DNA from: an uncultured Candidatus Saccharibacteria bacterium
GTDB lineage: Bacteria; Patescibacteriota; Minisyncoccia; Phycocordibacterales; PALSA-1337
NCBI GenBank assembly: GCA_964459225.1
Contig: CAYWKB010000001.1
Span: forward strand, 32,356 to 96,355
Direction of reading: 5' to 3'
Length of the DNA stretch: 64,000 bases
Numbering within the stretch: the first letter of the stretch is position 1; each line of letters starts with the position of its first letter. The notes beneath the pieces were generated by a model that worked only from the letters and a program-made list of their open reading frames with translations, did not search any database and had not been told where the DNA came from. The translations under genes and the position numbers were made by a program. This document shows positions 30,207 through 53,536 of this stretch, one piece after another.

Positions 30207-30321
30207 CTTTGTACTGGCGACTAGCTACTTTCCCCTTCATATGAGTATCATCGCCGCAACTGCGTTTCACTTCCGTGTTCGGAATGGGAACGGGTGTTTC
30301 CACAGCGCCAAATCACCAGAA
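30207..30321 (-). rRNA. rrf: 5S rRNA
   Basis: rc contains GCGTTTCACTTCCGTGTTCGGAATGGGAACGGGTGTTTCC matching conserved 5S core. Confidence 0.8.
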
Positions 30322-30720
30322 CAAAAAATTCAATCTGTTGATAAAAATTCAGATAAACAAAAGCTTATCGAATTTTAATAAATAAAGGTTTGTGCTTGTT
30401 ATAGACAAGTAATTGTGGTTCTTAAATTTCCTAATAGGATCGACGGATTAGTACTTCTCAGCTTAACATATTACTATGCGTACACCTAAAGCCTATCAAC
30501 GTAATCATCTCTTACGGGTCTCAAACGATTCCTAATCTTGGGGTTGGCTTCCTTCTTAGATGCTTTCAGAAGTTATCCATTCCGAACATAGCTACACTGC
30601 GATGCTCTTGGCAGAACAGCAGTCACACCAGAGGTTCGTTCAATTTGGTCCTCTCGTACTAAAATCAAATCCCCTCAAGAATCAACGCCTGCAGTAGATA
30701 GGAGACCAACCTGTCTCACG

Positions 30721-31276
30721 CTTGTTATCATAGATTACTCTATGCAATGGACTATAGCTTCACCTTCTTACGAAGGTTGTTAACGTTTAGTCTCTACGGG
30801 TGTTTATGAGTTTTGAAGAGAAGGCGAGACACAAGTTCCTGAGCTTTCGCCCCTCGTCCCCTAGGGGACTCTTAGGCGTGATTCCTTCGGATACGCCTAG
30901 CAATACATGTGCCTCACCAAAATTTGAGAACAAAAATTCTCTACAAAACTCACAAACTTCCCTCGGTATTATCCCTTTTTCATGGACTTCCACCGATTTT
31001 AGTTAACTTGATCTTTCTTATATTACTATAAGTGACCGCCGTGTTTGATTGATCTACTTCCTATACTTTTATTTTGTATAAATGTTACTTTATACTTTTC
31101 TTAAACGAAAAACTCGAAGTGATTCAGACTGTTCAATTGTTATAATTGCTTTACAAAATTATATTTCTCAAAATACTCGCATACTTTTCTGCTGAAAAGT
31201 TGCTCTTCTCGGCGCCAAGCGCCTGCGAAAGGTATTTTTCGAAACAAATTTTGCTCCGCTTAGTCATCACAACTAA
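30721..31276 (-). ncRNA. group I-like intron in 23S at E. coli position ~2593 (between ...AGACCGU and CGUGAGACAG), ~556 nt, no convincing homing-endonuclease ORF
   Basis: exon sequences contiguous in E. coli are split here; 5' exon ends in U, insertion ends in G; internal GCGG can pair with exon CCGU (P1 with U.G); known hotspot for group I introns. Confidence 0.55.
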
Positions 31277-31942
31277 ACGGTCTGAACCCAGCTCGCGTAA
31301 CTTTTTAATTGGCGAACAGCCAAACCCTTGGAAGCTTCTCCACCTCCAGGATAAGTTGAGCCGACATCGAGGTGCCGAACTGCGCCGTCGCTATGAACGC
31401 TTAGGCGCAACCAGCCTGTTATCCCTAGAGTAGCTTTTGGTCCGATAATCTTCCCCCGCGTCTAATGCGTAAGGTCGGTTCACTATGTTCTGCTTTCGCA
31501 TCTGTTCGACAAGTACGTCTTACAGTCAAGCCAGCTTATGCCATTACACTATCGGCACGGTTTCCATTCGCGCCTAGCTGACCTTAATAAACTCCTCCGT
31601 TACTTTTTAGGAGGATAGCGCCCCACTAAAACTGCCCGCCAGATTCTGTCTCTTGCCGTTTTTGCCGTCAAGGTTAGAATATATATTTTTTAAGAATGGT
31701 ATTTCACTGTCGGATCCATCTTCCCCGAAAGAAAAACTTCAAATCCTCCCATCTACGCTACGCATAAAAAACATATAGTCAAAATCAAGTTGCAGTAAAG
31801 CTTCTAGGGTCTTTTCGTCTAACTGCAGGTAATCGGCATCTTCACCGATATTGTATTTTCACCGAGCAAGTCTCCGAGACAGTTCTCCAGACATTACACT
31901 ATTCGTGCGCGTCAGAACTTACCTGACAAGGAATTTCGCTCT

Positions 31943-32194
<252 letters not shown>

Positions 32195-32997
32195 CAGGGC
32201 TTACAACAGTCAGCTTGATATAATCGCACCGCCGTTGTTTGACCTTCTGGCATTGGTCAAGTGTCACCCCCTATACATCCTCTTACGAGTTCGCAGGGAG
32301 CTGTGTTTTTGATAAACAGTTGCCAGAGATACTTTAGCTGCGGCCCTTCTTGCGAAGGGCAAGCCTTATTCCGAAGTTACGGCTGATTTTTTGCCGAGTT
32401 CCTTGGAGACCTCTCACTCGTTCGCCTTGGTCTACTCGACCTGAACACCTGTGTCGGTTTGCGGTACGGTTCCTGCATAGATAAGTTTAGAAGATTTTCT
32501 TGGAAGCGCGCTTTATAACATCTAAAAGGGCGAACCCCTCTATTTTCACTCTACTCGGAATTGTCATCAAAGACATTACCCGGATTTTCCTGGGTAAATT
32601 CCCTATAGCATGAACTCAAATCCAATAATGAGCGTCATATACTGCACTCCGTCCCTTCATCACTCTATACAAAAGTCATGGAATATTAACCATGTGTCCA
32701 TCGGGTGCGGTTTTCACCATCCCCTTAGGCCCGACTAACCCTTGGCTGATTTACATAGCCAAGGAAACCTTGTTCTTTCGGCGTGCCGGATTCTCACCGG
32801 CATTGTGGTTACTTGTGCCAACATTCTTACTTCCAAACGCTCCAGCATGGCTCACGCCTTTGCCTTCAACGCAGATTGGAATACTCTCCTACCACTGTAT
32901 ATTATCGAAATAAAATACAATCCTCAGTTTCGGTATCATGTTTAACCCCGATTATCTGCGGCGCAGAATCTCTCGATGAGTGAGCTGTTACGCTTTC

Positions 32998-33029
<32 letters not shown>

Positions 33030-33602
33030 TCATTGTTTGAGAAATTCAACCACCTTAAGCGTACTTAACATGAATTTAGGGACCTTAAATGGAGATCTAG
33101 GCTGTTTCCTTTTTGACGTATGGAGCTTAGCCCCCACCGTCTAACTGCTGAATAATTTAACCTCTGTATTCGGAGTTTGATAGGTCTCGTGATCTTTCGA
33201 CCTGTCGAGACCTTCCAGTGCTCTACCCCAGAGGGGTACATTCAACGCTAGCCCAAAAGCTATTTCGGAGAGAACCAGCTATTACCAGATTCGATTAGCT
33301 TATCACTCCTTACCTCAAGTCATCGCAGAGAATTGCACAACTCTAGCGTTCGGACCTCCCTTTCCACTTCTGAAAAGTTCATCCTGCTCAAGGCAAGCTC
33401 ATCTGGCTTCGGGTCTGATGCATACTACGAACGCGCTATTCACACTCGGTTTCCCTGTGGCTCCAGTCTCTCGACCTTAGCCTGCAGCATGCTTCAACTC
33501 GTTGGCTCATTCTTCAATAGGCACGCAGTCGAGGTATTGCTACCTCTTCTACTCCTTGTAAATATATGGTTTCAGGTCTATTTCATCGCCCTTACCGGGC
33601 TG

Positions 33603-33642
<40 letters not shown>

Positions 33643-34545
33643 TTCTAGAATATTTAGCCTTACCGGTTAGTTCCGGCAGATTCCCCCGAGCTATTCGTGT
33701 CTCGAGGTACTCAAGAATAGGAACAAAAAAGATCTTTTGATTTCGACTACAGGGCTATCACCTTCTGGGGCTAAGCTTTCCAGCTTATTCTTCTATCAAA
33801 AAATTTTGTAACTTTTCTGTTATAAATAACACGTTCCTACCTTACTACCCCCAACCTTTATCGCACGATAGGACATGAGAGACATTGCTGTCCCCCAAAA
33901 TTCCTATAGCACGATAAAGGTTGAGTTTGGGCTCTTCCGCTTTCGCTCGCCGCTACTTACGAAATTCTTATTTAGTCTCTATTCCTCCAGGTACTGAAAT
34001 GTTTTACTTCCCTGGGTGCGCATTCAAATATCAAGTACTTGAATTCTGACTCGAGGTCAGAGGGTTTCCCCATTCGGAGTCTTCCGGATCAAAGGTTGCT
34101 AGGCACCTCCCCGGAAAATATCGTCGCCATGCCACGTCCTTCATCGCTTCTTAGAAGCCTAGGCATCCACCATATACTCTTAAATTTCCCATTAGGAAAT
34201 CTAAAAACCACAATTATTTGTCTACAACTTACAACATACTATTTAATGTATATATTCGAAAAAACCCTAACATATATACATCTTATAGTATTACCTTTAT
34301 TTATCACTCAGTAACTTCCTGATTGTTGAAATTACTGAGTTATTTAATTGTCAATGTTTCTGTCATTATGTTATTGAATTTTTCATTTCAATTTTACAAA
34401 AAAATCGCTTTATTAAGCGACCTTTCCTAACACCGTTTTAAAGCGTTATTATGGCCGTTTAAATAGTGAAGTTTTTAACATATTTCTGTGTAAGGGATAG
34501 TGTATACGAAGGTGAAATTAAAGTCAATAGCGATACATAAAATAG

Positions 34546-35988: not shown

Positions 35989-36023
35989 ACAAAAAACCAC
36001 CGTGATGTCAGGTGGTTTTTTGT
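35989..36023. terminator. hairpin AACCACC-gtgatgtca-GGTGGTT + T6; terminator after rplL
   Basis: read directly. Confidence 0.6.
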
Positions 36024-37141: not shown

Positions 37142-39910
37142 CTATTTATTTTGAATTTCTATATCTTTTATCATTTTTTCAATCCCCGTAATGGTCTTTG
37201 TGAATTCCGAGTTATTAAGCTTTATTTCTTTGATTTTAATGTTGGTAGTAATCATGGTGTTATCGGGTTTATAACCATTTTTTCTTAATTTAGTCTCAAG
37301 CCTGCTGATTTTCATAAGTAGGCTATTGACTCTTTTATCTTCATTCACCCTAATAGAAAATAGTATCTTTTTCAATGTAGCAATATAGGTAGATAGATCA
37401 GAAATTGGTCCCAATTTACTTTCTGAAATCAAATCATCTGATTTATTAATAAAATCAATTGTGTTATTACCATCAATATCTATCTTTATTTGCGAACTAC
37501 TTGCAAAGTCTATTGTACTTGTAGCGAGTTCGATTTCGGCTATTGAATTTGTAGTTATTGGCATATCACTAAAATTAATCGAAGTTATTGTATTATCATT
37601 TTGTATTACTCTTGCATCGACAGAAAAAGGGGCTGTGTCCAAACCTTTCAACTTAATCTTATACTGCATTCCATCGTATGGAAGTATTAACATTTTTACC
37701 CTACCATACTCCTCATAATACGAGTCTGGTATATCGGTATCATATTTATTAATATCATTTGAAATACTCAGATTATCTACAGCTCTTCCTGTATGATTAC
37801 CATCCTCATCATATGCATCAATACTTACCGGTGAATGAACCTTAACACTTAGATACTTTGTATCATCAACTGGTTTAGTAGCTGAAAAATATGAGTCATA
37901 GGTGTTAGCAATTTGATTATTTACGGTCACTAAACTATTTATTTTTTCAATCAATTCATCTGAATTAAATATATTTGAATGATTAATACTTAATTTCTTA
38001 GCAGTCTTTAATTTTTTTAAATTTAGATATTCAGTATTTGAACCGTTTATAAAATCACTCATATTTATAACAGTTCCGTCACCATCATTCGTGAAAATAG
38101 GATTAAATTCAATGGGACATTTTAATACAAAACAGTGCGGCTCTCTTTGATACTCAATACCTTGAGTTGTGATATTGCCCCATCCTTTAATATTTACTAT
38201 TTTTGTGGAGCTTGAAATCAACAAATTATCTAAGGTATTGTGTAAATTTTCACTTTCGGTGAGTAAGGTTTTATTTAATAATAGAGGAATATTTATATCA
38301 TCAGTGTTTTTAAGAGAAAAAGAATTACCAATTAAAAAATCCTTAATCTGCGTATAACCGGACAAAACCTTGCTCGAAGTAGCGCTACTATATGAATCTA
38401 TAATCTTAATATCTTTATTATTATCAAATATTTTTAATGATGGTAGCAAACCATATGCACCAGGCAAGTTTTGTGAAAATTTTCTGGATTTATTCTCAGT
38501 TAAAAATATTCCCCCAAGTATAGACTGACCATAGCCATGCAACATTCCTAATAGAGCCTGTGGTGTACCGAGATCAGGCACAGCAACAAAAATTATCTTA
38601 TCTATAGTATCACCCCTACCCTTATCATTTAATTTCTTTATAAGTGCCTTTGTAAATAAACCACCATTACTATGAGAAATTATAGTTACCTTACCCGTCT
38701 TTGATGTTGAAGCCATGCTATATACACTGTTTATCACATTATTATCAATTAATGAAAAAACATTATATCTCCAATCATATGGTATTGATTTCCATGAATT
38801 TATATTTTTATTTTCAACAATATGATTTAAATAGTCAATTAAATTGGAATATATACTTTTAACACCGTATGCTTTATCAATAATATCCTTAGCGTATATT
38901 CCACTATTTATACTTTGCCCCTTAACATTCATACTTAAAATATCTATATCCTTTTCCCTATTTGGCTCCCATAGCATATTTGTACTAGTGCCTAATACAC
39001 CCTTATCATCTTTATATAATCTAGTCGCTTGTATGCCGGGTATAAAAATTATATTTGAGCAACATATATCAGGAGATACAATATTGTCTTTCCAGGGACT
39101 ATAGATAACGTCTCCTAGTATAATATCGCCAAATTGATCATTTTTAATTGTATCTTGTGTATTTGGTCCCTTAGCATTACCCCACCAATTGTCTTCAGCA
39201 AATACAGGATTTGTCGACGAATTGTCTATTGCATAATTTTGATTATCAAATAAATTTGAATTAGAAATGTTAATAATATTTTGATAAATATCTAAATCAT
39301 ATTGACCATCTTCCCTTGCCATTATTACAGCATTTCCAATACCACCTATTTCAGATTTTATATTATTCTTAACCTGGAATACCTGACCTTCGTATTCTGA
39401 TTTTATACCGTTAATATTATTATTTATTGTACTATTATCTATTTTTAAATTACTACCTCTTGAAATAATGGCATTTTTTGAATTTTTAATTATTGAGTTT
39501 GTAATTGTGGTTGTACTTTTTTCTAAAATCAATTCTGAATTATCAAAAACCGCGTATTTAATTACTGAATTATTTGAAACCAGATTGATTTCACCCAAAT
39601 CTTTAAACAAAACTTCATTATCTTTACTGCCATTAATGTTAATGCCTCCATCTACTGTGATTGCCACCCTATCATTTTCATCATTTTTTAAAGATTCAAT
39701 TTTAACACCGCTATCAATATTTAATTTATATTTATCAGGAATATATATTGATTCATCAATAATATATGGACTACCACTGTCTTTCCACTCCAAATTATCT
39801 AATATGTTTGCAGAGTTGATATGAGTAAGTGCCGAAACCATCTTTAGTGGAAATAACAATATAAAGAAAGTAATTATAGAAATGATTATATATGGATTTT
39901 TGATTTTCAT
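37142..39910 (-). CDS. large secreted protein: N-terminal right-handed beta-helix repeats + alpha/beta-hydrolase lipase/esterase domain (LCAT/PGAP1-like, HSNGG nucleophile elbow) + C-terminal extension
   Basis: 922 aa; signal peptide; parallel beta-helix repeat signatures (NSIIKNSKNAIISRGSNLKIDNSTINNN); IISHSNGGL = GxSxG. Confidence 0.55.
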   Translation of the reverse strand: MKIKNPYIIISIITFFILLFPLKMVSALTHINSANILDNLEWKDSGSPYIIDESIYIPDKYKLNIDSGVKIESLKNDENDRVAITVDGGININGSKDNEVLFKDLGEINLVSNNSVIKYAVFDNSELILEKSTTTITNSIIKNSKNAIISRGSNLKIDNSTINNNINGIKSEYEGQVFQVKNNIKSEIGGIGNAVIMAREDGQYDLDIYQNIINISNSNLFDNQNYAIDNSSTNPVFAEDNWWGNAKGPNTQDTIKNDQFGDIILGDVIYSPWKDNIVSPDICCSNIIFIPGIQATRLYKDDKGVLGTSTNMLWEPNREKDIDILSMNVKGQSINSGIYAKDIIDKAYGVKSIYSNLIDYLNHIVENKNINSWKSIPYDWRYNVFSLIDNNVINSVYSMASTSKTGKVTIISHSNGGLFTKALIKKLNDKGRGDTIDKIIFVAVPDLGTPQALLGMLHGYGQSILGGIFLTENKSRKFSQNLPGAYGLLPSLKIFDNNKDIKIIDSYSSATSSKVLSGYTQIKDFLIGNSFSLKNTDDINIPLLLNKTLLTESENLHNTLDNLLISSSTKIVNIKGWGNITTQGIEYQREPHCFVLKCPIEFNPIFTNDGDGTVINMSDFINGSNTEYLNLKKLKTAKKLSINHSNIFNSDELIEKINSLVTVNNQIANTYDSYFSATKPVDDTKYLSVKVHSPVSIDAYDEDGNHTGRAVDNLSISNDINKYDTDIPDSYYEEYGRVKMLILPYDGMQYKIKLKGLDTAPFSVDARVIQNDNTITSINFSDMPITTNSIAEIELATSTIDFASSSQIKIDIDGNNTIDFINKSDDLISESKLGPISDLSTYIATLKKILFSIRVNEDKRVNSLLMKISRLETKLRKNGYKPDNTMITTNIKIKEIKLNNSEFTKTITGIEKMIKDIEIQNK

Positions 39911-39955
39911 ATGAAGTTAATTAAGCTATTAATTAACTTATATTAATCTATACCG

Positions 39956-40001
39956 ATGAAATCCAAATAAAATCGAAATAAAATCTAAATGAAATTTTTA
40001 T
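39956..40001. repeat. intergenic repeat element copy A (core AATAAAATCTAAATGAAATTTTTAT, preceded by TGAAATCC...ATAAAAT, with TGAAATCC/GGATTTCA inverted repeat)
   Basis: 25-nt core identical to 50371-50395. Confidence 0.6.
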
Positions 40002-40223
40002 CAGGATTTCATTTTGTACTTTCCAATTAATGGGATTTGATTAAATGATGTGTCGTTAAATATGAAAGATGATTATTTACCTGTCTGCAAAACCTTAACT
40101 TGTTGTGAGTTTAAACTAGTACTGTATTGACCAACAAAAAGCATCATTAAAAAACTTGCACATAATATAAAACTGAAACCTAAAATAAATTTAAAAAAGT
40201 TTTGATCAAAAGGGTTTTTCATA

Positions 40224-41216
40224 TTATTTACGTAAACTATTAACATAATTATATACTATTGCTGACAATTCAGATATAACAGATTCTAATTCTTTAAAGT
40301 CATGACCTTTAGTCATAATACATATTAGGTATGGTCTTTGTGGATAATATACTATTCCACAATCATGTAGCTCTCTATCTTGTACCTTATTATCCTCTAA
40401 TTCATAAGTATGTTCACCAAATTTATGAGCTACAACAATATCTTTTGGAATACCAGAAATTATACCTTTATTAAAGGTGGTCTTTGTTAGTAAATCTAAT
40501 GCCTTTTCAGACATTTCTCTTGATAGATATGTAGAGTTATACAATGCCCTAAGTAGGGATGAATACGATCTAGGTGACATAAACCCATCTACATCATCCA
40601 AATTATTTGCTAGTGGCAACTGAAATGTTTTATATGCCTTATTAAAAATGTTTTCACTATCCTGTTTATCAAATATACTAAGTACAGTATTGTCAGAATA
40701 TATAATCATCTGCTTTATCAGCTCGTCAAATGTGTAATTTCCAACACTTAATATTTTTTCTGGTGGATAATTTTGCCCATAGTCTTTATCGTATTTATAA
40801 AACAACTTCTTTGAGAGCAAACCTTCTACATCCTGTGATTGTCTGTAATAACTCATCATTCCCAAGACTTTTAACATACTTGATGGATGATATTTAAAAT
40901 CCTCATTAACTCCAGTCCAGTGACCAGAGTTCATGTCTCTATAATATACTGAGATTGACTCAGCCTTATTTTCTTTTGTGCTTTTTTTAATATAATTCTG
41001 TAAATCACTATCTAAAACACTAAACTCATCTTCATAAAAAAGCTTACTGATTCTATAGAATAATAGTGGGTTTATATACTTATAATCTTTTGAATTTTCT
41101 CTGACTTCAACTGGTATTGGTGCTTTATATTCAGTTCTACAATAAATAATCCCAATAAATATTCCGACTATAAGAATGGTAATAAATGATAGTATTTGTA
41201 TTCCGGTTTTTTTCAT
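40224..41216 (-). CDS. class A beta-lactamase-like serine hydrolase, membrane-anchored
   Basis: HPSSMLK (S-x-x-K), YSDN (SDN), HKFGE (KTG-like) motifs; N-terminal TM. Confidence 0.55.
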   Translation of the reverse strand: MKKTGIQILSFITILIVGIFIGIIYCRTEYKAPIPVEVRENSKDYKYINPLLFYRISKLFYEDEFSVLDSDLQNYIKKSTKENKAESISVYYRDMNSGHWTGVNEDFKYHPSSMLKVLGMMSYYRQSQDVEGLLSKKLFYKYDKDYGQNYPPEKILSVGNYTFDELIKQMIIYSDNTVLSIFDKQDSENIFNKAYKTFQLPLANNLDDVDGFMSPRSYSSLLRALYNSTYLSREMSEKALDLLTKTTFNKGIISGIPKDIVVAHKFGEHTYELEDNKVQDRELHDCGIVYYPQRPYLICIMTKGHDFKELESVISELSAIVYNYVNSLRK

Positions 41217-41360
41217 ATTTTCTTTATAACTGTATTTATATTTAGATAATTATATACCTATTATTACAATACACAATCAAAACTTTAGACAAAACAAAAA
41301 CCACCCGTTAAGGTGGCTTTTGTACATCATTTTAACCCGATGTTAGGAGATTAGAGTGAA

Positions 41361-43262
41361 TTAGAACGCAACTAGAGGTGTAGTCAATGACTCTAGACCA
41401 TAAGTTATACTGTATGTTCTTGGAGTTGCAATGTTTGTAAGATCTGTAAAGTAAACTGAACTGATCTTAACTGTACCTGTCTTTGTTGTGTTATCACGTG
41501 TTGTATCGATTGTACTCTGGTATGTGAATGTTCTTGATCCACCAGCTGGGATAACATACATTGTTGATGTATCTCCTGAAACAACTGCCTCAGACACAAC
41601 TGTGTTTGCCCATGGTTGAGTTGTTGTAGCTGCAAATGTTGTTGTTGTTCCTAGAGCGATGTTTCCATCCTTTGAAACATACAAATCATTTGTACCTGTG
41701 TTGTTAAACTTGAATGTGAATGCGAATGTCTTCTTAACAACAGCTGAGTTACCGTTATCAACAGGAGTAACTACTACTGGTGACACTATACCTGTAACTG
41801 AAGCTCCGTTTGAAAGGAATGTCAAGTCACTTGATGTAACTGTATTAGCTCCTGAAGCTGTAACTGTTGTGTAATTACTATCAACACCAACAATGTTTGT
41901 TGTGTTTACTGTAATTGTTGTTGAAGCTATTGCTCCGTTTACAAAATCATCCTGATCAGCAACGTCTGCCATCAATGTGATTGTCTTCCATGAATCTTGT
42001 GGTAGATCTATTGTTAGATTTGAGAACACAGATGATGTAGCAACTGAATCTACATTGTACTTTGTAGCACCGTCAACAATGTACAATCTCTTGAACATAG
42101 TTGAGAAAGCTCTGTTTCTACCATTATCCTTCAATGTGAAAGTTAATGTGTTGATTGTAGAAGCTCTATTTTCTGACTTAAAGTCATATCTTCCAAGAAC
42201 AACATTTGATGTTTCACCAGATGTTGATGTTGTTTGTATACCTGTTGAAGGTGAATTTGGAGCGATCTTTACAAGGATGTTTCCTGTTGATCCTGATGAT
42301 GACAGTGTAGCTGTTCTACCTGTTGTACCAGAAACAGCAACTGTTCCTAGACCGATTGAATCTGTGTATCCCTTTCCGTTAAGAGTTCTGATTGAACCAT
42401 TTGGAACTGATACTATTACAGAAACATCTGATGATAGCTTGTCTGTTGTAGACAATACTGTTCCAGAAACAACCATTGTTCTGTCTGTACCTGGTGTAAC
42501 AACTGCATTGATACCTTCGAATCTTACTAGGTAGTCTGATCCAACTGTAATTTCAGTTGCGTCAGCTGCACTTGAAAGAGCCTTTGTAGCAACTACTGTT
42601 CCGTTACTATCCTTCAATGTAATTGTACTGAAGTACAACCATGGACGTGTATTGAATCTTACATCGAATCTTGTAACTGAAACTGGAGCAGCTGTAGCTT
42701 GAAGCTTAACAGCAACCAAGTCCTTTGTCTCACCCTTCTTTATTGTTACGTTTGATGCATAACTTGATAGAGAAGCTGTAAGAGATCCGTCTGTACCATC
42801 CATTACTAGAGCAGTTGGAGTAACTGGTGTTACTACTGTTCCTGGATTAGCTGTACATGTAAATCCTACTGGACATGCTGTTGTTGAAACTGTTGCTGAT
42901 GTTCCATTTAGAACTCCTCTTGTAAGAGGTCCTACGAATCCTGTACTTGGAAGACCAACACTAGCTTGATATGCAGAAACTGCTGACTTTGTCTGTGAAC
43001 CAAAGTATCCTGGAGCTACTGCCTTTGAACTAACAGCCTTGATATCAAAGCCCTTGCTTATAAGAAATGCTTGTAGAGCAGATACGTCTGCACCTGTACT
43101 ACCAACACTTAGATTTGCGTTATATGCTGCATTAACTGATGCTGCTCCTACGAGTGCAACTGTCAAAGCTATAACACTTGAAACTATAGTTTTCTTCATA
43201 ATAAATTTTATAATTAAATAATCTTTCTTTCGGTTAATTAATAATGTTGAAAGAAAAATCAT
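41361..43262 (-). CDS. cell-surface protein: signal peptide + peptidoglycan-binding domain (PG_binding_1-like) + long Thr/Ser/Val-rich beta-rich region; likely real start MKKTIVSS at ~43202
   Basis: GSTGADVSALQAFLISKGF...YFGSQTKSAVSAYQASVGL repeat pair typical of PG-binding domain; 633 aa. Confidence 0.5.
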   Translation of the reverse strand: MIFLSTLLINRKKDYLIIKFIMKKTIVSSVIALTVALVGAASVNAAYNANLSVGSTGADVSALQAFLISKGFDIKAVSSKAVAPGYFGSQTKSAVSAYQASVGLPSTGFVGPLTRGVLNGTSATVSTTACPVGFTCTANPGTVVTPVTPTALVMDGTDGSLTASLSSYASNVTIKKGETKDLVAVKLQATAAPVSVTRFDVRFNTRPWLYFSTITLKDSNGTVVATKALSSAADATEITVGSDYLVRFEGINAVVTPGTDRTMVVSGTVLSTTDKLSSDVSVIVSVPNGSIRTLNGKGYTDSIGLGTVAVSGTTGRTATLSSSGSTGNILVKIAPNSPSTGIQTTSTSGETSNVVLGRYDFKSENRASTINTLTFTLKDNGRNRAFSTMFKRLYIVDGATKYNVDSVATSSVFSNLTIDLPQDSWKTITLMADVADQDDFVNGAIASTTITVNTTNIVGVDSNYTTVTASGANTVTSSDLTFLSNGASVTGIVSPVVVTPVDNGNSAVVKKTFAFTFKFNNTGTNDLYVSKDGNIALGTTTTFAATTTQPWANTVVSEAVVSGDTSTMYVIPAGGSRTFTYQSTIDTTRDNTTKTGTVKISSVYFTDLTNIATPRTYSITYGLESLTTPLVAF

Positions 43263-43496
43263 TTATAAACTGATAAACCTACTGATAATTGATAATCTAA
43301 TTTCACCATTTCCCAATGCCTTGTTATCGACACAAGGCAAAAGGATTAGGCTATAAGGATTTTAGTCTGAATTTCTATCTTTAACTAACAATAAAGGTAT
43401 GGGTAAATTCGGTATTTATAACTCAATTAAATTGTCAACGAACCAAAACCGTAACTGCAGAATATTATACATCTAAATGTACGTAAACTGCAAAAG

Positions 43497-43508
43497 TTAT
43501 GTGGATAA
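43497..43508. promoter_or_regulatory. TTATGTGGATAA 12-mer (DnaA-box containing), copy 2
   Basis: exact match to 12250-12261 and 53537-53548. Confidence 0.5.
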
Positions 43509-43675
43509 CTAGGGGTTTTTGGCCATAAAGACCACATCGGTATATTACACAAAATAAGGTCGAAAGTCAATAATATACAGCTCATAATATATATAGTGTG
43601 GGATCAATTGATAATATGGCTAATTTAAGCCATATACCGGTATTTAAGATCAGGATATGATCTTGTAATCAGAGT

Positions 43676-44335
43676 CTATATTAATGAATACTTACTCCAT
43701 CTCCTTTCCCCCTCTTTCTTGATTAAACCCCTAGTAACCATATCTGTCAGCTCCCTTTGTATGGTCTTTTCACTGCAATCTGTTATCACTTTAACGAAAT
43801 CTTTTATGGTCAGATTTGAATTATTTTTTAATAGATTTATTATACTTTCCTGCCTATCTTTTTTAGGCATTTTGCCTATAGTATTTGAAGTATTTTTAAC
43901 ATTAAAACTTGATGATTTATTTTGATTATTTTTAAAATTATCTATAGACATTTCACCACTATTGTCAGTAGCAAAATAACTATTTGAAAGTACATATCCA
44001 GATAGCTCCTCCAGTGAATTGCGATTTTTCTCAATGTAAAGTTTTAATTGATTTAATTCAGTAGAGATTACATTAGTATTCATTATTGAAACCTGCTTTG
44101 ATAACTCCAAAATCTTAAGTAATGAATTAATCTTATTCAAAGAATTAATAAAAAGGTTATAAGCATAGTCCTTTTCGCTTGTTATTGGTGAATACATAAT
44201 ATGAGAATTAGAGACAAAGCTTATTGCCTCCTCGCGTATCTCCCACTTAATACAGTCACTGTCTTTTATGTTGTCTGTGATTAAATATATTGCAGATACG
44301 ATTCTTTCTGACTTTTGTACTATATAATTACTCAT
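43676..44335 (-). CDS. putative transcriptional regulator with C-terminal winged-helix HTH
   Basis: C-terminus KDRQESIINLLKNNSNLTIKDFVKVITDCSEKTIQRELTDMVTRGLIKKEG = DeoR/HTH_11-like. Confidence 0.4.
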   Translation of the reverse strand: MSNYIVQKSERIVSAIYLITDNIKDSDCIKWEIREEAISFVSNSHIMYSPITSEKDYAYNLFINSLNKINSLLKILELSKQVSIMNTNVISTELNQLKLYIEKNRNSLEELSGYVLSNSYFATDNSGEMSIDNFKNNQNKSSSFNVKNTSNTIGKMPKKDRQESIINLLKNNSNLTIKDFVKVITDCSEKTIQRELTDMVTRGLIKKEGERRWSKYSLI

Positions 44336-44508
44336 GTCTTTAATAAAATATATTATGTCTTTTTTGATTACAAAATTAAGTAATCAATGTCTTTTATAGC
44401 AAAATCAATATTTTATATGTCCATTATATAAAGGACGCAATCATATTGCAAAGAAATAATATTCTATGACATGCACAGTGAATAATTACAATGGTTATTT
44501 GATATAAT

Positions 44509-46743
44509 ATGTTATTATTATTTAATAAATATATGGCAAATAAAAAGAAAATTATTGATAGTGGTATTCCAGTAAAAAAGGAAACCAAACAAACTGTCTT
44601 TGCGGTATTGTTTTTTGTTCTAGCATTGCTATCAATATTATCTGCCATAGATGCTGCCGGTAAAGTTGGTACTTATGCATACAAACACCTAGCAATACTA
44701 TTTGGAATGGGTTATTTCCTTATACCTATTTCTTTTATAATGACCGCTATCGCTTTTATTATGGGTGTTAAAGCGGAATTCAAAATATCAAAAATAATAA
44801 GTATATTTCTGTTTTTCTTTTCTGGTTTAGGACTTATGGGACTACTTGTTGCAAATGAGGGCGGAATTGTTGGTAAATGGATACTATATCCTTTTATTAA
44901 TTTATTTGATGTTTATGCAACCGCAGCGATACTTATAGCATGTATATGTATTTCAGTGATTATAACTTTTGAAATGCATATAACGGCTGAGAGTTTAAAA
45001 TTTTGGAAATGGTTCCATAGGGATGAGGATGAATTAGAGTCAGTGGATACTGTTGATATTGAAGATGATGAATTTTCTGATATCAAATCAGAAAACCGCA
45101 TCAACAAAGCAGTGCAGGATGTAGAAAATAATATAAAGAAAAATGAAAAAGCAGAAAAGATAGCAAAAGATGAGGTTCAAGATATTGTAATGAGTAAATC
45201 ATATATCAATAAAGAGTTTACTCCTCCACCACTTTCATTACTTGAAAAAGACAAGGGTAAACCAGAAACTGGAGATATAAAAGCTAATGCAAATATAATA
45301 AAAAGAACTCTACAAAATTTCGGTATCAGTGTTGAAATGGATGAAATATCTATTGGACCCTCAGTTACAAGATATGCATTAAAGCCCGCTGAAGGCGTTA
45401 AACTCTCAAAAATAGTCGGACTAAATAATGATCTTGCCTTGGCACTTGCCGCACATCCGATAAGAATAGAGGCCCCCATACCAGGCAAATCACTAGTCGG
45501 TATCGAAATTCCAAATACCACAAAGACCACAGTGGGACTTGCAACACTTTTGGGTTCTGATGAATATCAAGGTTCAGATAAACCATTACTTATTTCACTG
45601 GGTAAAGGTATTTCAGGTAAATCATTTTTTTCAAATCTTGCAAAAGCACCACATATGCTTATAGCGGGTACAACTGGTTCTGGTAAATCAGTAACAATTC
45701 ACGCGATTATAACCTCTTTGCTATTTAGAAATTCTCCTGAAAATCTAAAATTCATAATGATTGATCCTAAAAGAGTTGAATTAACTTTGTACAATAAAAT
45801 CCCTCATCTCTTAACACCAGTTATAACTGATGCAAAAAAGGCAATTTTGGCACTAAAGTGGGCGGCAAAGGAAATGAGTAGAAGATACGATATATTAGAA
45901 AAAAACACAGTAAGGGATATTGATTCATATCACAAAACTGTTTTGGCTCCAGCATTAAAAAACAAAAAGTCAGGCGATGATGAAACCAAATTACCTGAAT
46001 CGATGCCTTATATCGTAATCGTATTGGATGAATTGGCCGATATTATGCAGACATATCCAAGAGAGCTTGAATCAGCAATAGTAAGACTTGCACAAATGAG
46101 CCGTGCTGTTGGTATACATTTAATACTATCAACACAAAGACCTAGTGTTAATGTTATTACAGGGTTAATCAAAGCAAATGTACCAACAAGAGTTGCGCTT
46201 CAAGTTTCTGCACAGATAGACTCAAGAACTATTTTGGATACTGGAGGAGCTGAAAAGCTATTGGGTGCAGGAGATATGCTCTATCTTGGCTCTGAAATGT
46301 CAAAACCACAGAGATTACAATCAGCATATATCACTGAGCGTGAAGTTAAAGAGGTAGTTAAATATCTTGCTGACACATATAAAGATGAAATTATGGGTGA
46401 AATAAATCTAGCAGTACCTGAGGCTGGCAAAGATGCCATATTTGAGGCAAATTTTGATTCTGATAGCGAAGATTTAGGAGATGAAGATGAATTACTAGGT
46501 CAGGCAAAACAAATTGTAGTTGAAAGCGGCAAGGCATCTACTTCATGGTTACAAAGGAAATTAGGCATAGGATATTCAAGGGCTGCCAAATTAATTGATT
46601 TACTTGAGAGTAAAGGTATAGTTGGTCCTGCCAATGGTTCAAAACCAAGAGAAGTTTATGGAAATGATTCTCCATCTCAATCAACTGAAGATATATCAAG
46701 TACAGGCGAAGACACAATACAATCAAATCGTGATAGTATCTAA
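44509..46743 (+). CDS. ftsK: DNA translocase FtsK/SpoIIIE (N-terminal TM, motor domain, C-terminal gamma domain); start possibly MANKKK at 44536
   Basis: GTTGSGKSV Walker A, DELAD, gamma-domain WLQRKLGIGYSRAAKLIDLLE. Confidence 0.85.
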   Translation: MLLLFNKYMANKKKIIDSGIPVKKETKQTVFAVLFFVLALLSILSAIDAAGKVGTYAYKHLAILFGMGYFLIPISFIMTAIAFIMGVKAEFKISKIISIFLFFFSGLGLMGLLVANEGGIVGKWILYPFINLFDVYATAAILIACICISVIITFEMHITAESLKFWKWFHRDEDELESVDTVDIEDDEFSDIKSENRINKAVQDVENNIKKNEKAEKIAKDEVQDIVMSKSYINKEFTPPPLSLLEKDKGKPETGDIKANANIIKRTLQNFGISVEMDEISIGPSVTRYALKPAEGVKLSKIVGLNNDLALALAAHPIRIEAPIPGKSLVGIEIPNTTKTTVGLATLLGSDEYQGSDKPLLISLGKGISGKSFFSNLAKAPHMLIAGTTGSGKSVTIHAIITSLLFRNSPENLKFIMIDPKRVELTLYNKIPHLLTPVITDAKKAILALKWAAKEMSRRYDILEKNTVRDIDSYHKTVLAPALKNKKSGDDETKLPESMPYIVIVLDELADIMQTYPRELESAIVRLAQMSRAVGIHLILSTQRPSVNVITGLIKANVPTRVALQVSAQIDSRTILDTGGAEKLLGAGDMLYLGSEMSKPQRLQSAYITEREVKEVVKYLADTYKDEIMGEINLAVPEAGKDAIFEANFDSDSEDLGDEDELLGQAKQIVVESGKASTSWLQRKLGIGYSRAAKLIDLLESKGIVGPANGSKPREVYGNDSPSQSTEDISSTGEDTIQSNRDSI

Positions 46744-46745
46744 GC

Positions 46746-47102
46746 ATGAATAGATATGAATTCAAGAAATTAATAGCTGCTGTTATTTTTGTCCTAATTA
46801 CTTTTTTTATACTTGGATATGTGTATTTTGCATCAAGAGACTATATCAAAGGCCCATCGATTGAAATAACTGAACCAGAAAACGGTATATCAACAAGCAC
46901 ATCAACAGTAAAGGTTCTAGGTAAGGCACTTAGGATTAAAGAAATAACATTAAATGGTAAACCCCTACTTATCGATAAACAAGGAAACTTCAATGAAACA
47001 CTTTTACTTGCCCCTGGTTACAATGTTTCAATGATAAATGCTATAGATAAATTTAATAGAACTATTGAATACAAATTAGAACTTGTCTATAAAAAAGATT
47101 AG
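46746..47102 (+). CDS. membrane-anchored hypothetical protein
   Basis: 118 aa, N-terminal TM. Confidence 0.35.
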   Translation: MNRYEFKKLIAAVIFVLITFFILGYVYFASRDYIKGPSIEITEPENGISTSTSTVKVLGKALRIKEITLNGKPLLIDKQGNFNETLLLAPGYNVSMINAIDKFNRTIEYKLELVYKKD

Positions 47103-47157
47103 TAGATTGTAGTAGAATATATGTAGTACCCTGGAATTATTTTTAATAACTATACAT

Positions 47158-48276
47158 ATGGCAAAGAAAACAAAAGACGTAAAGGAAGAATTGAATGAAG
47201 TTGAAGAAAAATTTGAAGAATTAGATAGTGAAGGTGAAGAAATAAAAAATAGCAAAAACAAAAAGGAACAGAAAAAAATAGATCATGCAGGTGGTATAAA
47301 CTCTACTCTTGATGCAATACGTTCAAAGTTCGGCGATGAGTCTATAATGAAGCTTGGTGATAAGCCAAAGGTAAATGTAAATGCAATTCCTACAGGCTCA
47401 ATAGGACTTGATGCAGCACTTGGTATAGGAGGAATGCCTAGAGGAAGAATAGTCGAAATATTCGGCCCAGAATCATCTGGAAAGACAACATTATCATTAC
47501 ATGTAATCGCTGAAGCACAAAAGCTTGGTGGTATATGTGCTTTTATTGATGCTGAGCATGCTATGGATCCAGATTATGCAAAGAGACTTGGTGTTAAAAC
47601 AGAAGAATTACTAATATCACAACCAGATACAGGAGAACAAGCCCTTGGTATTGTTGAAAGTCTTGTGAATTCAGGAAAAATGGACGTGATAGTGATAGAC
47701 TCTGTCGCAGCCCTTACTCCAAAAGATGAAATCGAGGGAGATATGGGAGCATTTCATGTTGGAAAGCAGGCAAGACTTATGTCACAAGCTCTAAGGAAAC
47801 TCACAAGTATAGTAGCAAAGTCAAAGACAGTTGTGATATTCATCAATCAAATAAGAATGCAAATAGGAGTTATGTTCGGTAATCCAGAGACAACACCAGG
47901 AGGCAAAGCATTAAAATTTTATACTTCAGTAAGATTAGATATACGTAGAATAGCACAAATCAAAAAAGGAGAAGAAATAATGGGAGGTAGAGTGCGTGTG
48001 AAAGTAGTTAAAAACAAAGTCGCTGCCCCATTTAGGCAAACTGAATTTGATTTAATGTACAATGAAGGAATATCACAGGAAGGTGAAATCATAGCTCTAG
48101 GTGAAAAGATGGGTATAATAACAAAATCAGGTACATCATATTCATATAAAAAGGAAAACGATGAGGTTAAACTAGGTAGAGGATATGATGCGACAAGACA
48201 GTTTTTAAAGGAAAATACACCCATCAAAAACGAAATCCTAAAGAAAATAAGAGTAGAACTTGCACAAGCCAAATAA
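47158..48276 (+). CDS. recA: recombinase RecA with ~45-aa acidic/lysine-rich N-terminal extension
   Basis: [10 protein letters not shown] Walker A, full RecA core; extension [28 protein letters not shown]. Confidence 0.9.
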
Positions 48277-48287
48277 TGGTGTAATAT

Positions 48288-48875
48288 GTGAATACTATGT
48301 CAATGTTAGAATATAATGAAGTTGTAGAAAGGAAATATATAGTTATGGATGGTCAGCCTTATGAGGTTATTTCTTCTCATGTTTTCAGAAAACAACAGAG
48401 AAAGCCTGTTAATGCTACTAAGCTTAAAAATCTTTTTAGTGGAAAGGTAACAGAATATTCATTCCATGTATCTGAAAAGGTTGAAGAGGCAGAAATAGAA
48501 TCAAGAGAGGTTAAGTATTTATACGAAAATAAAGGAAAAGGTGAATATTGGTTTTGCCTACCAACAGATCCTAGTAAGAGATTTAGTTTTACAGGCGACA
48601 AAGTTGGTAATCAAATCAAATACATTAAGCCAAATACAATAATCACAGAATTAATGTTCCGTGAACAAACTATTGGTTTTAAAATCCCTATAGTAGTAGA
48701 GCTTAAGGTTACAGAAGCCCCACCAAATGTTAAAGGTGATAGTGCAACAGGTGGAAATAAAATCATTACACTTGAGACAGGAGCAACAATAAACGCACCA
48801 CTCTTTGTAAATGAAGGCGATATCGTTAGAGTAAATACTGAAACTGAAGAATATAAAGATAGAGTGGGTAAATAA
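48288..48875 (+). CDS. efp: elongation factor P-like protein (EF-P fold), loop lacking canonical KPGKG
   Basis: three-domain EF-P pattern (GQPYEV..., KLKNLFSG); loop reads QQRKPVNATK. Confidence 0.6.
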   Translation: MNTMSMLEYNEVVERKYIVMDGQPYEVISSHVFRKQQRKPVNATKLKNLFSGKVTEYSFHVSEKVEEAEIESREVKYLYENKGKGEYWFCLPTDPSKRFSFTGDKVGNQIKYIKPNTIITELMFREQTIGFKIPIVVELKVTEAPPNVKGDSATGGNKIITLETGATINAPLFVNEGDIVRVNTETEEYKDRVGK

Positions 48876-48885
48876 CATATAAGTA

Positions 48886-48920
48886 AAACAAAAACCGAGA
48901 TTATCTCGGTTTTTGTTTTG
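48886..48920. terminator. hairpin AACCGAGAT-tatc-TCGGTT + T-run, bidirectional between efp and rpsR
   Basis: read directly. Confidence 0.6.
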
Positions 48921-48940
48921 TTTGTATTCCCTTTTTACTA

Positions 48941-49144
48941 TTACATTGCTACATATGGAAGTAATCCCATAAATCTAGCTCTCTTAACTGCAATAGATAA
49001 TTGTCTTTGACTTCTTGCACATACTCCTGTCTTTTTCCTACTAATCATACGAGCATGAGGATTAAGAAACTTTTTTAGTATTTCAGTATCCTTATAGTCT
49101 ATATGCTTAATATTGTTTTGTAAAAAATAACACTGTTTATTCAT
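48941..49144 (-). CDS. rpsR: 30S ribosomal protein S18
   Basis: 67 aa, ...KKTGVCARSQRQLSIAVKRARFMGLLPY. Confidence 0.85.
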   Translation of the reverse strand: MNKQCYFLQNNIKHIDYKDTEILKKFLNPHARMISRKKTGVCARSQRQLSIAVKRARFMGLLPYVAM

Positions 49145-49167
49145 ATTTTTAATTTATTTTAATAATT

Positions 49168-49632
49168 TTAGAATGGTATATCATCTGGATTAATTTCTTC
49201 TTCTGGATAATCTATTGTATCTACTGGAGCATTATCCTTTGTATTATCTTCAGATGCTGGCATTCCCTTTGCATCCTTTGATGGAGATGATGCTACTGCA
49301 CCTGAACTCTTTGGACCAAACTGTATTTTATCTGCTACTATTTCTGTTCTGTACTTTTTTTGTCCATCCTGACCGTCCCATGTTCGTGTTTGAAGTCTTC
49401 CTTCAACATATACTCCACTTCCTCTCTTTAAGTATTGTCCGACTATTTCAGCCTGACGACCAAATACAACAATATTGTGGAAATCAGCTGCTTCTTTTTT
49501 TGCACCTGATTGATCCTTCCAAACACGATTTGTTGCTACACTAAATGAGCAAACTTTACTTCCTGATGGCAATGCTTTTATTTCTGGATCTTTGGTTATA
49601 TTTCCATAGATCATTACTTTGTTTAAGTACAT
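49168..49632 (-). CDS. ssb: single-stranded DNA-binding protein
   Basis: OB-fold core, C-terminal acidic tail ending DDIPF. Confidence 0.85.
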   Translation of the reverse strand: MYLNKVMIYGNITKDPEIKALPSGSKVCSFSVATNRVWKDQSGAKKEAADFHNIVVFGRQAEIVGQYLKRGSGVYVEGRLQTRTWDGQDGQKKYRTEIVADKIQFGPKSSGAVASSPSKDAKGMPASEDNTKDNAPVDTIDYPEEEINPDDIPF

Positions 49633-49658
49633 ATTTTTTAGAGTTAAGTTAATAAAAA

Positions 49659-50147
49659 CTACGCCTCTTTCACCATAGCATCAATACTTTTATCCATTTC
49701 TTCAGTTAATACAACTGGAGCTGCTTCTACACCCTCCACAACCTCTACATTTACATCTGCTTGAGGTTCTGGCATTGGCTCTGTAGACTTTTTGCCCAAA
49801 TATGTATTTTCCTTAACTGTTGTTATAAGCAACATACGGAGCATATTTACATTTTCCTCAAATGCCTTTTTAACAGCTTCGATTTCCTTTGTGTCTAGCT
49901 CAAATTTGAACCATCCAAAGTATCCCTTATCAAATCTATGATTTGTAGGGCCTATCTTTTTAATCATTGTATAGGCCAATGTTCTAAGCTCTGGAGCTTC
50001 TTCCCCTATAAATTGAGCGTTCTTTTTTGTTAAAATTTCTTTTAACTTTAAGACCTCAGACTCAACTTTTTCTTCTGGTATGCTTGAAACAAGCAAATAA
50101 CCTATTTCATATACCTGAGACTTACTTTCCTTTAAATTTTCCTTCAT
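49659..50147 (-). CDS. rpsF: 30S ribosomal protein S6 with extended acidic C-terminus
   Basis: YEIGYLL...RTLAY motif; rpsF-ssb-rpsR synteny. Confidence 0.75.
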   Translation of the reverse strand: MKENLKESKSQVYEIGYLLVSSIPEEKVESEVLKLKEILTKKNAQFIGEEAPELRTLAYTMIKKIGPTNHRFDKGYFGWFKFELDTKEIEAVKKAFEENVNMLRMLLITTVKENTYLGKKSTEPMPEPQADVNVEVVEGVEAAPVVLTEEMDKSIDAMVKEA

Positions 50148-50350
50148 TTGTTTATACCTAATGGTAATAGTGACAGTAATTTACCCTCATTTCTAAAAGA
50201 AATTTAGTAAAGCATGGCCCGTGCTATTGCCAAGACTGTTCACGTTATGTAGTTGATAAAATGCACGTAAATGCAGATTAACATGTTAATTGATGGAAAT
50301 CAAGGTATTAACCATGGTGAAATGGTTAAATAAACGATAACAAATTGAAA

Positions 50351-50395
50351 TGAAATCCGTATAAAATATTAATAAAATCTAAATGAAATTTTTAT
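50351..50395. repeat. intergenic repeat element copy B (TGAAATCC..ATAAAAT..AATAAAATCTAAATGAAATTTTTAT)
   Basis: 25-nt core identical to 39977-40001; flanking ATAAAATCT/AGATTTTAT inverted repeat. Confidence 0.6.
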
Positions 50396-50425
50396 TAAGA
50401 TTTTATCCTGATCAAAAGTTATTAT

Positions 50426-51253
50426 TTAACTTAGTTTAAATAATTCCTTTGCATTATTGACTATTTGATTTAGTACCATTTCCCTATCTTCCCCTCTTAT
50501 ATCGGCAATTGCATGTGCAATTTCGATAACATGACTTGGTTCATTCCTCATCATATGACCGCGCTTCCTATACGGTAATGGGGTTACATATGGCGCATCT
50601 GTTTCAGACATAATCATATTAAGTGGAGCACTTTTAACTATTTCATCGTAATCTCTCACAAAAGTTATCACACCTGTAAATGAAATTCTAAATCCTAAAT
50701 CTATAAAAGCTTTTGCTTCATCAAGTGATCCAGCAAAAAAGTGTGCATCACCGTGAACCTTTGCATGTTTTTTAAGTATTTCCAATGCATCATTGTATGC
50801 ATTTTCCTTTTTATCTAAGCTACTTCTTAGATGTAACATAAGTGGTTTATTTACTTCATTAGCTAATTGTATTTGTTTTTCAAAAACCTTTTTTTGTAAA
50901 TCTTTATCTATTCCCTTTTCCTCGTTGTATTTATTTTTAAAATAATCAAAACCACATTCACCAATTCCTACAACTTTATTATGTTCTGCTAATTTCTTAT
51001 ATTCATGATAGGCAAATTCACCATCAATTACTTCGCATGGTATTTCAACTGGATGCAATCCTATAATTGCCCATATTCCCTCATTTTGTTCTGCTATTTC
51101 CACTGCCCTTTTAGATGATTGTAGATTTGTACCGACAATTATTATTCCGACACCTTTTTCCTTACATCTATCTATAACCTCCTGTCTATCCAAATTAAAA
51201 TCATCAAAATTTATATGACAATGTATATCTATGTATTTCATCTTATCTATCAC
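50426..51253 (-). CDS. tatD: TatD-family metal-dependent hydrolase/DNase
   Basis: IDIHCHINFDDF..., 275 aa TIM-barrel hydrolase pattern. Confidence 0.75.
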   Translation of the reverse strand: MIDKMKYIDIHCHINFDDFNLDRQEVIDRCKEKGVGIIIVGTNLQSSKRAVEIAEQNEGIWAIIGLHPVEIPCEVIDGEFAYHEYKKLAEHNKVVGIGECGFDYFKNKYNEEKGIDKDLQKKVFEKQIQLANEVNKPLMLHLRSSLDKKENAYNDALEILKKHAKVHGDAHFFAGSLDEAKAFIDLGFRISFTGVITFVRDYDEIVKSAPLNMIMSETDAPYVTPLPYRKRGHMMRNEPSHVIEIAHAIADIRGEDREMVLNQIVNNAKELFKLS

Positions 51254-53473: not shown

Positions 53474-53536
53474 AAACTTATTAATAATTAAACTTATAGC
53501 TATAAGTATAGCAAATATAGAAATGTCTGTTAAACG

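Follow-up and report, generated by a model that had tools for sequence, protein, structure and literature searches.

Two copies of a small intergenic element, A and B, lie in the window analysed here, a 64,000 nt stretch of DNA from an uncultured Candidatus Saccharibacteria bacterium. Both are located in the promoter regions of minus-strand transcription units, as the original prediction had proposed, and all of the genes around both copies are on the minus strand. The core of copy A is 67–91 nt upstream of the start (39910) of an open reading frame (ORF) of 922 aa and the core of copy B is 224–248 nt upstream of the start of rpsF (50147), in agreement with the distances first given. A conserved 57 aa ORF and a beta-lactamase-like gene are found on the other side of copy A. 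Copy B begins 18 nt past the TatD stop codon (50426–50428) and ends ~190 nt before rpsF. The anatomy of the element is described throughout on the gene strand, which is the minus strand of the window. The element and its associated features, including the three direct repeats (DR1 to DR3) in each copy, are as follows.

37142..39910, minus strand: target of copy A, gene of a 922 aa secreted alpha/beta-hydrolase-like (lipase-like) protein (Pfam DUF7379, weak match)
39940..40013, minus strand: copy A, whole module, 74 nt (nhmmer E 5e-13)
39940..39945, minus strand: predicted -10 hexamer of copy A, TAATAT, in the canonical column 9 nt after DR3 (...ATC) of a 19-copy alignment
39955..39990, minus strand: direct 11 bp repeats DR1 to DR3 of copy A, spacing 11, 11
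40000..40013, minus strand: distal inverted arm of copy A, complementary to DR3 at 12 of 14 positions, one of them G-T
48941..50147, minus strand: target of copy B, the rpsF-ssb-rpsR operon (Ribosomal_S6, SSB, Ribosomal_S18)
50148..50327, minus strand: structured 5' leader of rpsF, following copy B and outside the repeat (6-genome alignment)
50334..50407, minus strand: copy B, whole module, 74 nt (nhmmer E 3e-15)
50334..50344, minus strand: extended -10 of copy B, TTTGTTATCGT (column alignment)
50349..50384, minus strand: direct 11 bp repeats DR1 to DR3 of copy B, spacing 11, 11
50394..50407, minus strand: distal inverted arm of copy B, complementary to DR1 at 13 of 14 positions

The 25-mer AATAAAATCTAAATGAAATTTTTAT occurs exactly twice in the window, at 39977–40001 and 50371–50395 (plus strand), preceded in both copies by TGAAATCC-NN-ATAAAAT, just as originally described. 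There is no further match in the window at up to 3 mismatches, and the expectation from 100 dinucleotide shuffles is 0, bearing out the view that the identity is too long to be due to chance. The element had been taken to be ~45 nt in length; that there are two copies is confirmed, but the similarity actually covers 74 nt. Without gaps the two copies are 86% identical over 57 nt (family D1) and, when the -10 region is included, 74% identical over 74 nt (A 39940–40013, B 50334–50407), with the likeness stopping sharply at either border. Both are composed of 11 nt tandem units with start-to-start spacings of 11 and 11. The local inverted repeats that had been noted correspond to an inverted arm present in both, the arm pair being ATGAAATCC...GGATTTCAT in copy A and GATAAAATCTTAAT...ATTAAGATTTTATC in copy B. 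In copy A, the arm AATGAAATCCTGAT is followed by the spacer AAAAATTTC, DR1 ATTTAGATTTTATT, the DR2 region TCGATTTTAT, DR3 TTGGATTTCATC, the 9 nt GGTATAGAT and the -10 TAATAT. Copy B has the arm GATAAAATCTTAAT, the same spacer AAAAATTTC and DR1 ATTTAGATTTTATT, the DR2 region AATATTTTAT, DR3 ACGGATTTCATT, then TCAATTTGT and the -10 TATCGT. A profile made from 23 copies matched nowhere else in the window at E<1.

Species-representative genomes were scanned with an exact 22-mer of the core, giving 15 true loci from three metagenome-assembled genomes (MAGs) titled 'Candidatus Saccharibacteria' and one titled 'Candidatus Paceibacteria', the loci of the latter being close orthologues of the Saccharibacteria loci. 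Three single 22-mer matches in other genomes were discarded as chance, their flanks having no similarity to the element. Metagenome contigs were scanned with a degenerate pattern based on the repeats, which added at least 8 true copies. The nhmmer profile from the 23 copies then recovered further, more diverged members, and exact-protein look-ups recovered two extra copies in the window's own genome, beyond the window. Altogether there are ~34 distinct copies and two variant forms, in the window's genome, the four MAGs and metagenome contigs, which answers the proposal that occurrences be sought in relatives. The four copies of the window's genome are mutually 74–82% identical. Most of the listed matches of the degenerate pattern were unrelated 11 nt satellites. 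Long satellites of 11 nt units (e.g. nnGATTTTATn) are carried by numerous unrelated contigs from metagenomes, several of them of a single coral-associated dataset, and include loci L024, L025, L051, L060, L071, L081, L095 and L099 (L numbers are used for sequences other than the window); they have nothing else in common with the element.

The copies share a common architecture. From 5' to 3' this is a 14 nt inverted arm, a 9 nt spacer, three direct 11 bp repeats with the core GATTTTATC, 9 nt, and the hexamer TAnnnT, with the consensus GATAAAATCTAAAT - AAAAATTTC - ATTTAGATTTTATC - AAAATTTTAT - ACGGATTTTATC - TCnnTTTGn - TAnnnT. The arm is a repeat unit in reverse complement, and TAnnnT is mostly preceded by TTTGn, forming an extended -10. 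Conservation includes positions outside the A/T tracts, namely the G and C flanking TTTTAT and the ACGG/CAGG in DR3. Diverged members have no arm, and 2–5 direct GATTTTATC units abut the -10 (L004b, L017b, L055 and L103). In L151 two GATTTTATC units are found amid GC-richer flanks, and in L149 four 11 nt units of a variant sequence are found in the same position. All copies with a readable downstream flank face a co-oriented ORF, the exception being L125, which has a short frame only.

Several features of the 3' end indicate that a promoter is present. All aligned copies have TAnnnT at a single fixed column, 9 nt past DR3, and its inner three bases vary freely. This is the signature of a -10 hexamer and not a mere consequence of the copies being identical. 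Without the repeats, TTTGnTAnnnT is also found upstream of a tRNA gene (16817, minus) and of unrelated genes (30161, 35993 and 11099, minus; 44498, plus). It therefore appears to be the general promoter type of this organism, and no special sigma factor is needed. The window contains 57 of these motifs against 42 +/- 7 in shuffles, a modest excess, with a further site at 53515 (minus). In 17 of the first 29 copies, and ~22 out of 36 overall, a start codon (ATG or GTG) is found 6–8 nt after TAnnnT, including at dprA and at a gene of family F1 in the window's own genome. This implies leaderless mRNAs, and Pfam domains begin at the N-termini of the ORFs with this geometry. Leaderless genes probably also occur outside the element family, since the start codons at 35993 and 11099 are 6–7 nt after the motif. 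Inspection of the spacing ruled out promoter motifs of the sigma-54 and Bacteroidetes types. It is very likely that the module contains a functional promoter.

The element is retained at orthologous promoters. It is present at the junction of TatD and rpsF in five genomes (the window, L003, L005, L077 and L140) and between serS and dprA in the window's genome (L146), L156 and L153; a fourth genome, L013, has the order element, small gene F2, dprA. The two L146 copies, at 3954–4037 (minus) and 9922–10003 (plus), are outside the window. One is directly upstream of dprA, in the leaderless geometry and divergent from serS, and the other is upstream of a 129 aa gene of the F1 family. The serS gene has a TCTGCTATTAT-N6-ATG arrangement of its own. 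At orthologous loci the identity of the element is 74–93%, compared with 72–93% for the adjacent rpsF coding sequence. The element thus diverges at about the rate of rpsF coding sequence, which points to ordinary purifying selection. An appearance of extreme, near-perfect conservation was rejected as an artefact of the exact 22-mer search. In more distant relatives the array itself is absent. The rpsF and lipase-like loci of L143 keep '...TTCAT-N-TTTGnTAnnnT' and the rpsF leader without a repeat array, and the regions upstream of dprA in the distant candidate phyla radiation (CPR) sequences L157 and L158 likewise keep the -10 and have no array. The core promoter is thus the older part, and the array a clade-specific addition.

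Across genomes, the genes downstream of the element belong to at least 12 unrelated families. Those for DNA uptake and processing include dprA, directly or behind the small gene F2 (window genome, L156, L153 and L013), ssb within rpsF-ssb-rpsR (five genomes), comEC (L015), a PilB/T2SSE-type ATPase (L004) and an ORF6N gene within a pilin cluster (L004 and L018). Others resemble RNase toxins: PemK/MazF-like genes with no adjacent antitoxin (five), NYN (two) and PBECR1 (one). Family F1 is downstream in seven contexts, and a small downstream family with a weak toxin-like fold is also among the targets. No homologue of ORF6N, MazF, NYN or F1 was found in the window.

The explanation that is favoured on balance is that the element is a promoter module with a primary-sigma -10, in which the upstream repeat array binds a regulator. 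Primary-sigma RNA polymerase would use TAnnnT, in most members as the extended -10 TTTGnTAnnnT, and no -35. Transcription would start ~7 nt downstream of TAnnnT. For the lipase-like gene this predicts a start at ~39933 and a 5' untranslated region (UTR) of ~23 nt to the ATG at 39910, and for rpsF-ssb-rpsR a start at ~50327 and a leader of ~180 nt. Many genes of the regulon would be expressed from leaderless mRNAs. The ~60 bp upstream, from ~-22 to -80, would be a phased array, with three direct repeats filling ~-22 to ~-60 and abutting the promoter in place of the -35, and one inverted copy further upstream. A sequence-specific regulator may occupy this array head-to-tail on one face of the helix, and A/T tracts touching the carboxy-terminal domain of the RNA polymerase alpha subunit (alpha-CTD) may add to its effect. 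In this way the array could give joint control of a dispersed gene set, which is rich in functions of DNA uptake and processing (dprA, ssb, comEC, the PilB-type ATPase and pilins) and in solitary RNase-toxin-like genes.

The module is therefore probably the operator of an undescribed regulon in a clade of ultra-small bacteria resembling Saccharibacteria, an assignment that follows from the 11 bp repeats replacing the -35, the conserved non-tract positions, the change of the repeat unit as a whole in a distant lineage and the conservation at orthologous promoters. Judged from the sequences, binding of the repeats by a specific regulator has a slightly better than even chance of being correct; any direction of regulation, and the physiological signal behind it, are likewise conjectural. 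Of the three possibilities first raised, a regulator binding site is the best supported, the array being at a fixed distance from the -10, in the same orientation as the gene that follows and retained at orthologous promoters. Nor is the element a fragment of a larger dispersed repeat without positional bias, as the similarity stops at the borders and the bias is complete. Assignment of the targets to a competence, DNA-uptake or stress regulon is possible but doubtful. Equally tentative is the suggestion that one repeat-binding regulator couples dprA, ssb, comEC, the pilus ATPase and pilins to RNase-toxin-like genes (MazF, NYN and PBECR1/BECR-like) that are leaderless and have no antitoxin. 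Were this so, it would represent a competence or stress programme (host-detachment or phage) and the first cis-regulatory code defined for the phylum. A receiver-only response regulator is the sole response regulator noticed near the pilus genes. That the ORF6N protein might bind the repeats and regulate its own gene is pure speculation.

There are a number of observations that weigh against this explanation. The window copies are not themselves in the leaderless geometry, the hexamer being followed by the ATG only after 29 nt in A and 186 nt in B. When tested for TGn before TAnnnT, copy B and most members have it, but copy A, which otherwise has the geometry of the family consensus, is missing the TTTG of the extended -10. 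A consensus promoter scan of both copies gave no canonical -35/-10 pair for the gene strand, a result to be expected of a promoter lacking a -35 but no positive evidence for one. The pilB-type ATPase genes of the window have no copy of the element, and the gene set as a whole is mixed, containing a lipase-like protein, a ribosomal operon and RNase-like genes. The DNA-uptake theme is built on few observations per gene, with comEC and the pilB-type ATPase seen once each. Most copies were retrieved with the exact 22-mer, and the conservation of the core is therefore partly due to ascertainment. An A/T-rich phased array could also work through DNA curvature or alpha-CTD contacts without a specific protein. 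Finally, covariation between the arm and DR3, and the 14–19 bp hairpins that some copies can form, are not needed by an operator acting purely as double-stranded DNA.

One alternative is that the element is a portable promoter or recombination anchor, a site of crossover for gene cassettes, its conservation arising from spread and gene conversion. This is unlikely as the whole explanation, although gene content does vary at the element. In L005 (5691–6361), the order is TatD, element, a 126 aa F1 gene, element, rpsF, with the two copies 590 bp apart, and L003 (5003–5088) and the window (50334–50407) have a single copy at TatD and rpsF; the difference is an insertion or deletion with its junctions inside the element. 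The gene after the element at the Pth...S1 locus is MazF-like in L012 and L017 and encodes an unrelated 157 aa protein in L007, and in L153 and L013 an extra small gene is found between the element and dprA. Putative mobile promoters have been defined as sequences of 50–100 nt with at least 80% identity that precede non-homologous genes, whether in one genome or in different ones (Matus-Garcia et al. 2012, PMC3488235). The window pair falls within this definition, being 86% identical over 57 nt and preceding a lipase-like gene and rpsF. The definition is however of an operational class without a mechanism, and the architecture and orthologous conservation of the element point to regulated promoters rather than recent mobilisation. 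No integrase or transposase is present in the gene tables and neighbours examined, and matches in IMG/VR, a phage collection and PLSDB were limited to chance-level A/T similarity (Borreliella cp32, E 4e-3). The attached gene families have 35–60% amino acid identity, far more diverged than the element, and recent co-mobilisation therefore cannot explain its similarity. The element is also stable at orthologous housekeeping promoters, where its rate of change is close to that of the adjacent coding sequence. Exchange is compatible with the promoter and operator, and the module may, as a real secondary property, also be an anchor for the exchange of accessory genes by transformation.

MAG contigs break at the element, which has been counted here among the features in favour of an anchor. 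The contig ends of L001 (6569–6590) and L010 (6556–6577), two contigs of one MAG, both stop inside the element, with identical flanks. Since assemblies break at this repeat, the copy numbers in MAGs are underestimates.

A little less likely is that the element acts at the RNA level, the arm and repeats forming a hairpin on read-through transcripts that terminates, processes or stabilises the upstream mRNA, with the promoter merely adjacent. At least 7 copies have an upstream ORF that ends in or at the arm, with the stop codon within the arm in L003, L004, L008 and L014, and copy B starts 18 nt past the TatD stop codon. Hairpins of 14 bp (arm and DR1, z score -2.0) and 19 bp (arm and DR2/3, z score -5.3) fold better than shuffled sequences, and in the 19 bp stem subtype the stem is followed by CGUUUUGUU (UUUUGUU). 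The original prediction had suggested a check for a covarying hairpin. Across the family the arm does covary with DR3 (G-C to U-A four times, A-U to G-C five times), scoring 0.157 against 0.113 in shuffles, with none of 500 shuffles as high, and U-G wobbles are tolerated on the gene strand only. Covariation of the arm with DR1 carries no information because DR1 was fixed by the search pattern, and that between the arm and DR3 could stem from one or two lineage events among related sequences. The window copies themselves fold weakly (z scores -1.0 to -2.2). The stems are almost pure A-U, the main type has no directly following U-tract, and a terminator scan found none at either window copy; on these grounds an intrinsic terminator was rejected. 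In addition, diverged members without the arm retain the repeats and the -10, and the L146 copy at dprA faces a divergent gene, so that there is no upstream transcript to terminate. A small RNA, as had also been raised, does not fit, given the weak fold, the position of the element upstream of the predicted start site and the absence of an Rfam match. In Rfam 15 there was no match over the element at gathering thresholds, and for copy B none at E<=1 over 49600–50500.

It is improbable that the array is only a UP-like element, in which phased A/T tracts bend the DNA and contact alpha-CTD to make a reused strong constitutive promoter without a specific protein. T4 tracts are present every 11 bp between ~-25 and -50, and a ribosomal-protein operon is among the targets. 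The stretch at -57..-47 agrees at 9 of 11 positions with the E. coli UP consensus, a lead in this direction rather than a test of it. However, the non-tract positions are conserved too, the repeat unit changes as a unit in the distant lineage L149, alpha-CTD contact gives no role to an inverted copy at -80, and many of the toxin-like targets are unlikely to be constitutively highly expressed.

That the element is a selfish miniature repeat (a miniature inverted-repeat transposable element, repetitive extragenic palindrome or Correia-like repeat) that has landed upstream of genes by accident is very improbable: it is short, multi-copy and found in several genomes with arms resembling 14 bp inverted termini, and MAG assemblies break there, but its orientation relative to the downstream gene is the same in all readable copies, its distances to the -10 and ATG do not vary, the flanks show no target-site duplication, no copy is inside a gene, copies are few (2 per 64 kb in the window), mobile-element collections have no match, and the conserved block is asymmetric, the arm pairing with an internal repeat and conservation continuing for at least 20 nt beyond on one side only, into the -10 and often the ATG. 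Integron attC sites were likewise rejected, there being no RYYYAAC ... GTTRRRY core sites and no integrase in the gene tables, and the copies being dispersed at housekeeping loci.

As a promoter with a probable operator in place of its -35, the element most resembles the pho-box type. Direct repeats with an 11 bp period replacing the -35 are the layout of PhoB/OmpR-activated promoters, at which a winged-helix response regulator binds and recruits sigma region 4. The element has this layout of 10–11 bp period, with 11 bp direct repeats on one face of the helix, the proximal unit ~10 bp upstream of the -10, the repeats taking the place of the missing -35 and a variable number of units (2–5). It differs in that GATTTTATC is unrelated in sequence, an extra inverted copy is present upstream and many targets are leaderless. 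To our knowledge, the element has no known cognate regulator.

Shared cis elements also precede scattered dprA, ssb, comEC, pilus ATPase and pilin genes in competence regulons. The competence boxes include the ComK boxes of Bacillus, the sigma-X com/cin-box of streptococci and the CRP-S sites of the Pasteurellaceae. There is no motif match to the element, and its gene set adds a ribosomal operon and many RNase-toxin-like genes. On consensus inspection these known boxes were rejected, the element having no AAAA-N5-TTTT dyad pair (ComK) and its -10 being TAnnnT rather than TACGAATA (com/cin-box). The housekeeping type of this -10 makes an alternative sigma factor unlikely. A link to competence would be drawn by analogy, from gene content only.

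Like the Correia elements of Neisseria, the element is a small repeat with inverted arms, outward promoter elements and hairpins in read-through RNA. Correia elements are found in either orientation, with a TA duplication and in hundreds of copies. The element differs in its strict orientation, lack of duplication and low copy number. Leaderless promoters of the Actinobacteria and Deinococcus have TANNNT ~7 nt upstream of AUG. This is similar to the TAnnnT-N6-8-ATG of ~22 family members, although the window copies have predicted UTRs of ~23 nt and ~180 nt and an upstream array is not a feature of that class.

The element is a new cis-regulatory module with a candidate regulon, and is outside every sequence-defined family tested. 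No publication describing it was found in the literature, nor was any description of promoters, start sites, leaderless transcription, operators or regulatory motifs in the Saccharibacteria or CPR. Almost nothing is known of transcription signals and regulons in the CPR/Patescibacteria, and genetic work in the Saccharibacteria borrows the regions upstream of tuf and rpsJ as promoters (PMC10633639). The element yields a testable promoter model for the clade, of an extended -10, no -35 and often no leader. Among the genes of its candidate regulon are those for natural transformation, on which these epibionts are believed to rely, and the element flags solitary RNase-toxin-like genes as candidates for common control. 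A ~75 bp module may also be useful in genetic tools as a compact, portable and possibly regulatable promoter.

The leader of rpsF, between copy B and the operon, is conserved in its own right. In six genomes, including a distant one, it has 35 base pairs, 5 with compensatory changes, and keeps its sequence blocks and four helices, with an insert of variable length in one hairpin loop. It has no Rfam match at E<=1. It is a candidate for autoregulation by S6:S18, of a kind specific to this group of CPR.

At the copy A locus, the syntenic gene in L143, after a PG_binding_1 gene, carries PF02450 (LCAT). The hydrophobic 57 aa ORF (MKNPFDQ...; 40073–40246, minus) is also directly upstream of the lipase-like gene in the distant L143 (~19050–19220), and is therefore probably a real gene for a small membrane protein. 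The beta-lactamase-like gene (40224–41216) is absent from the corresponding position in L143.

The G+C content of the window is ~31%, and its rRNA genes are unlinked, in the order 23S-5S...16S. The 23S rRNA gene (30428–34196, minus) is 3769 nt in length compared with a 2925 nt model, insertion(s) accounting for ~840 nt. The 5S gene (30212–30320, minus) comes next and forms a pair with it, and the separate 16S gene (18670–20288, minus) is ~10 kb further downstream on the same strand. The G+C content and the rRNA genes fit a CPR/Patescibacteria genome.

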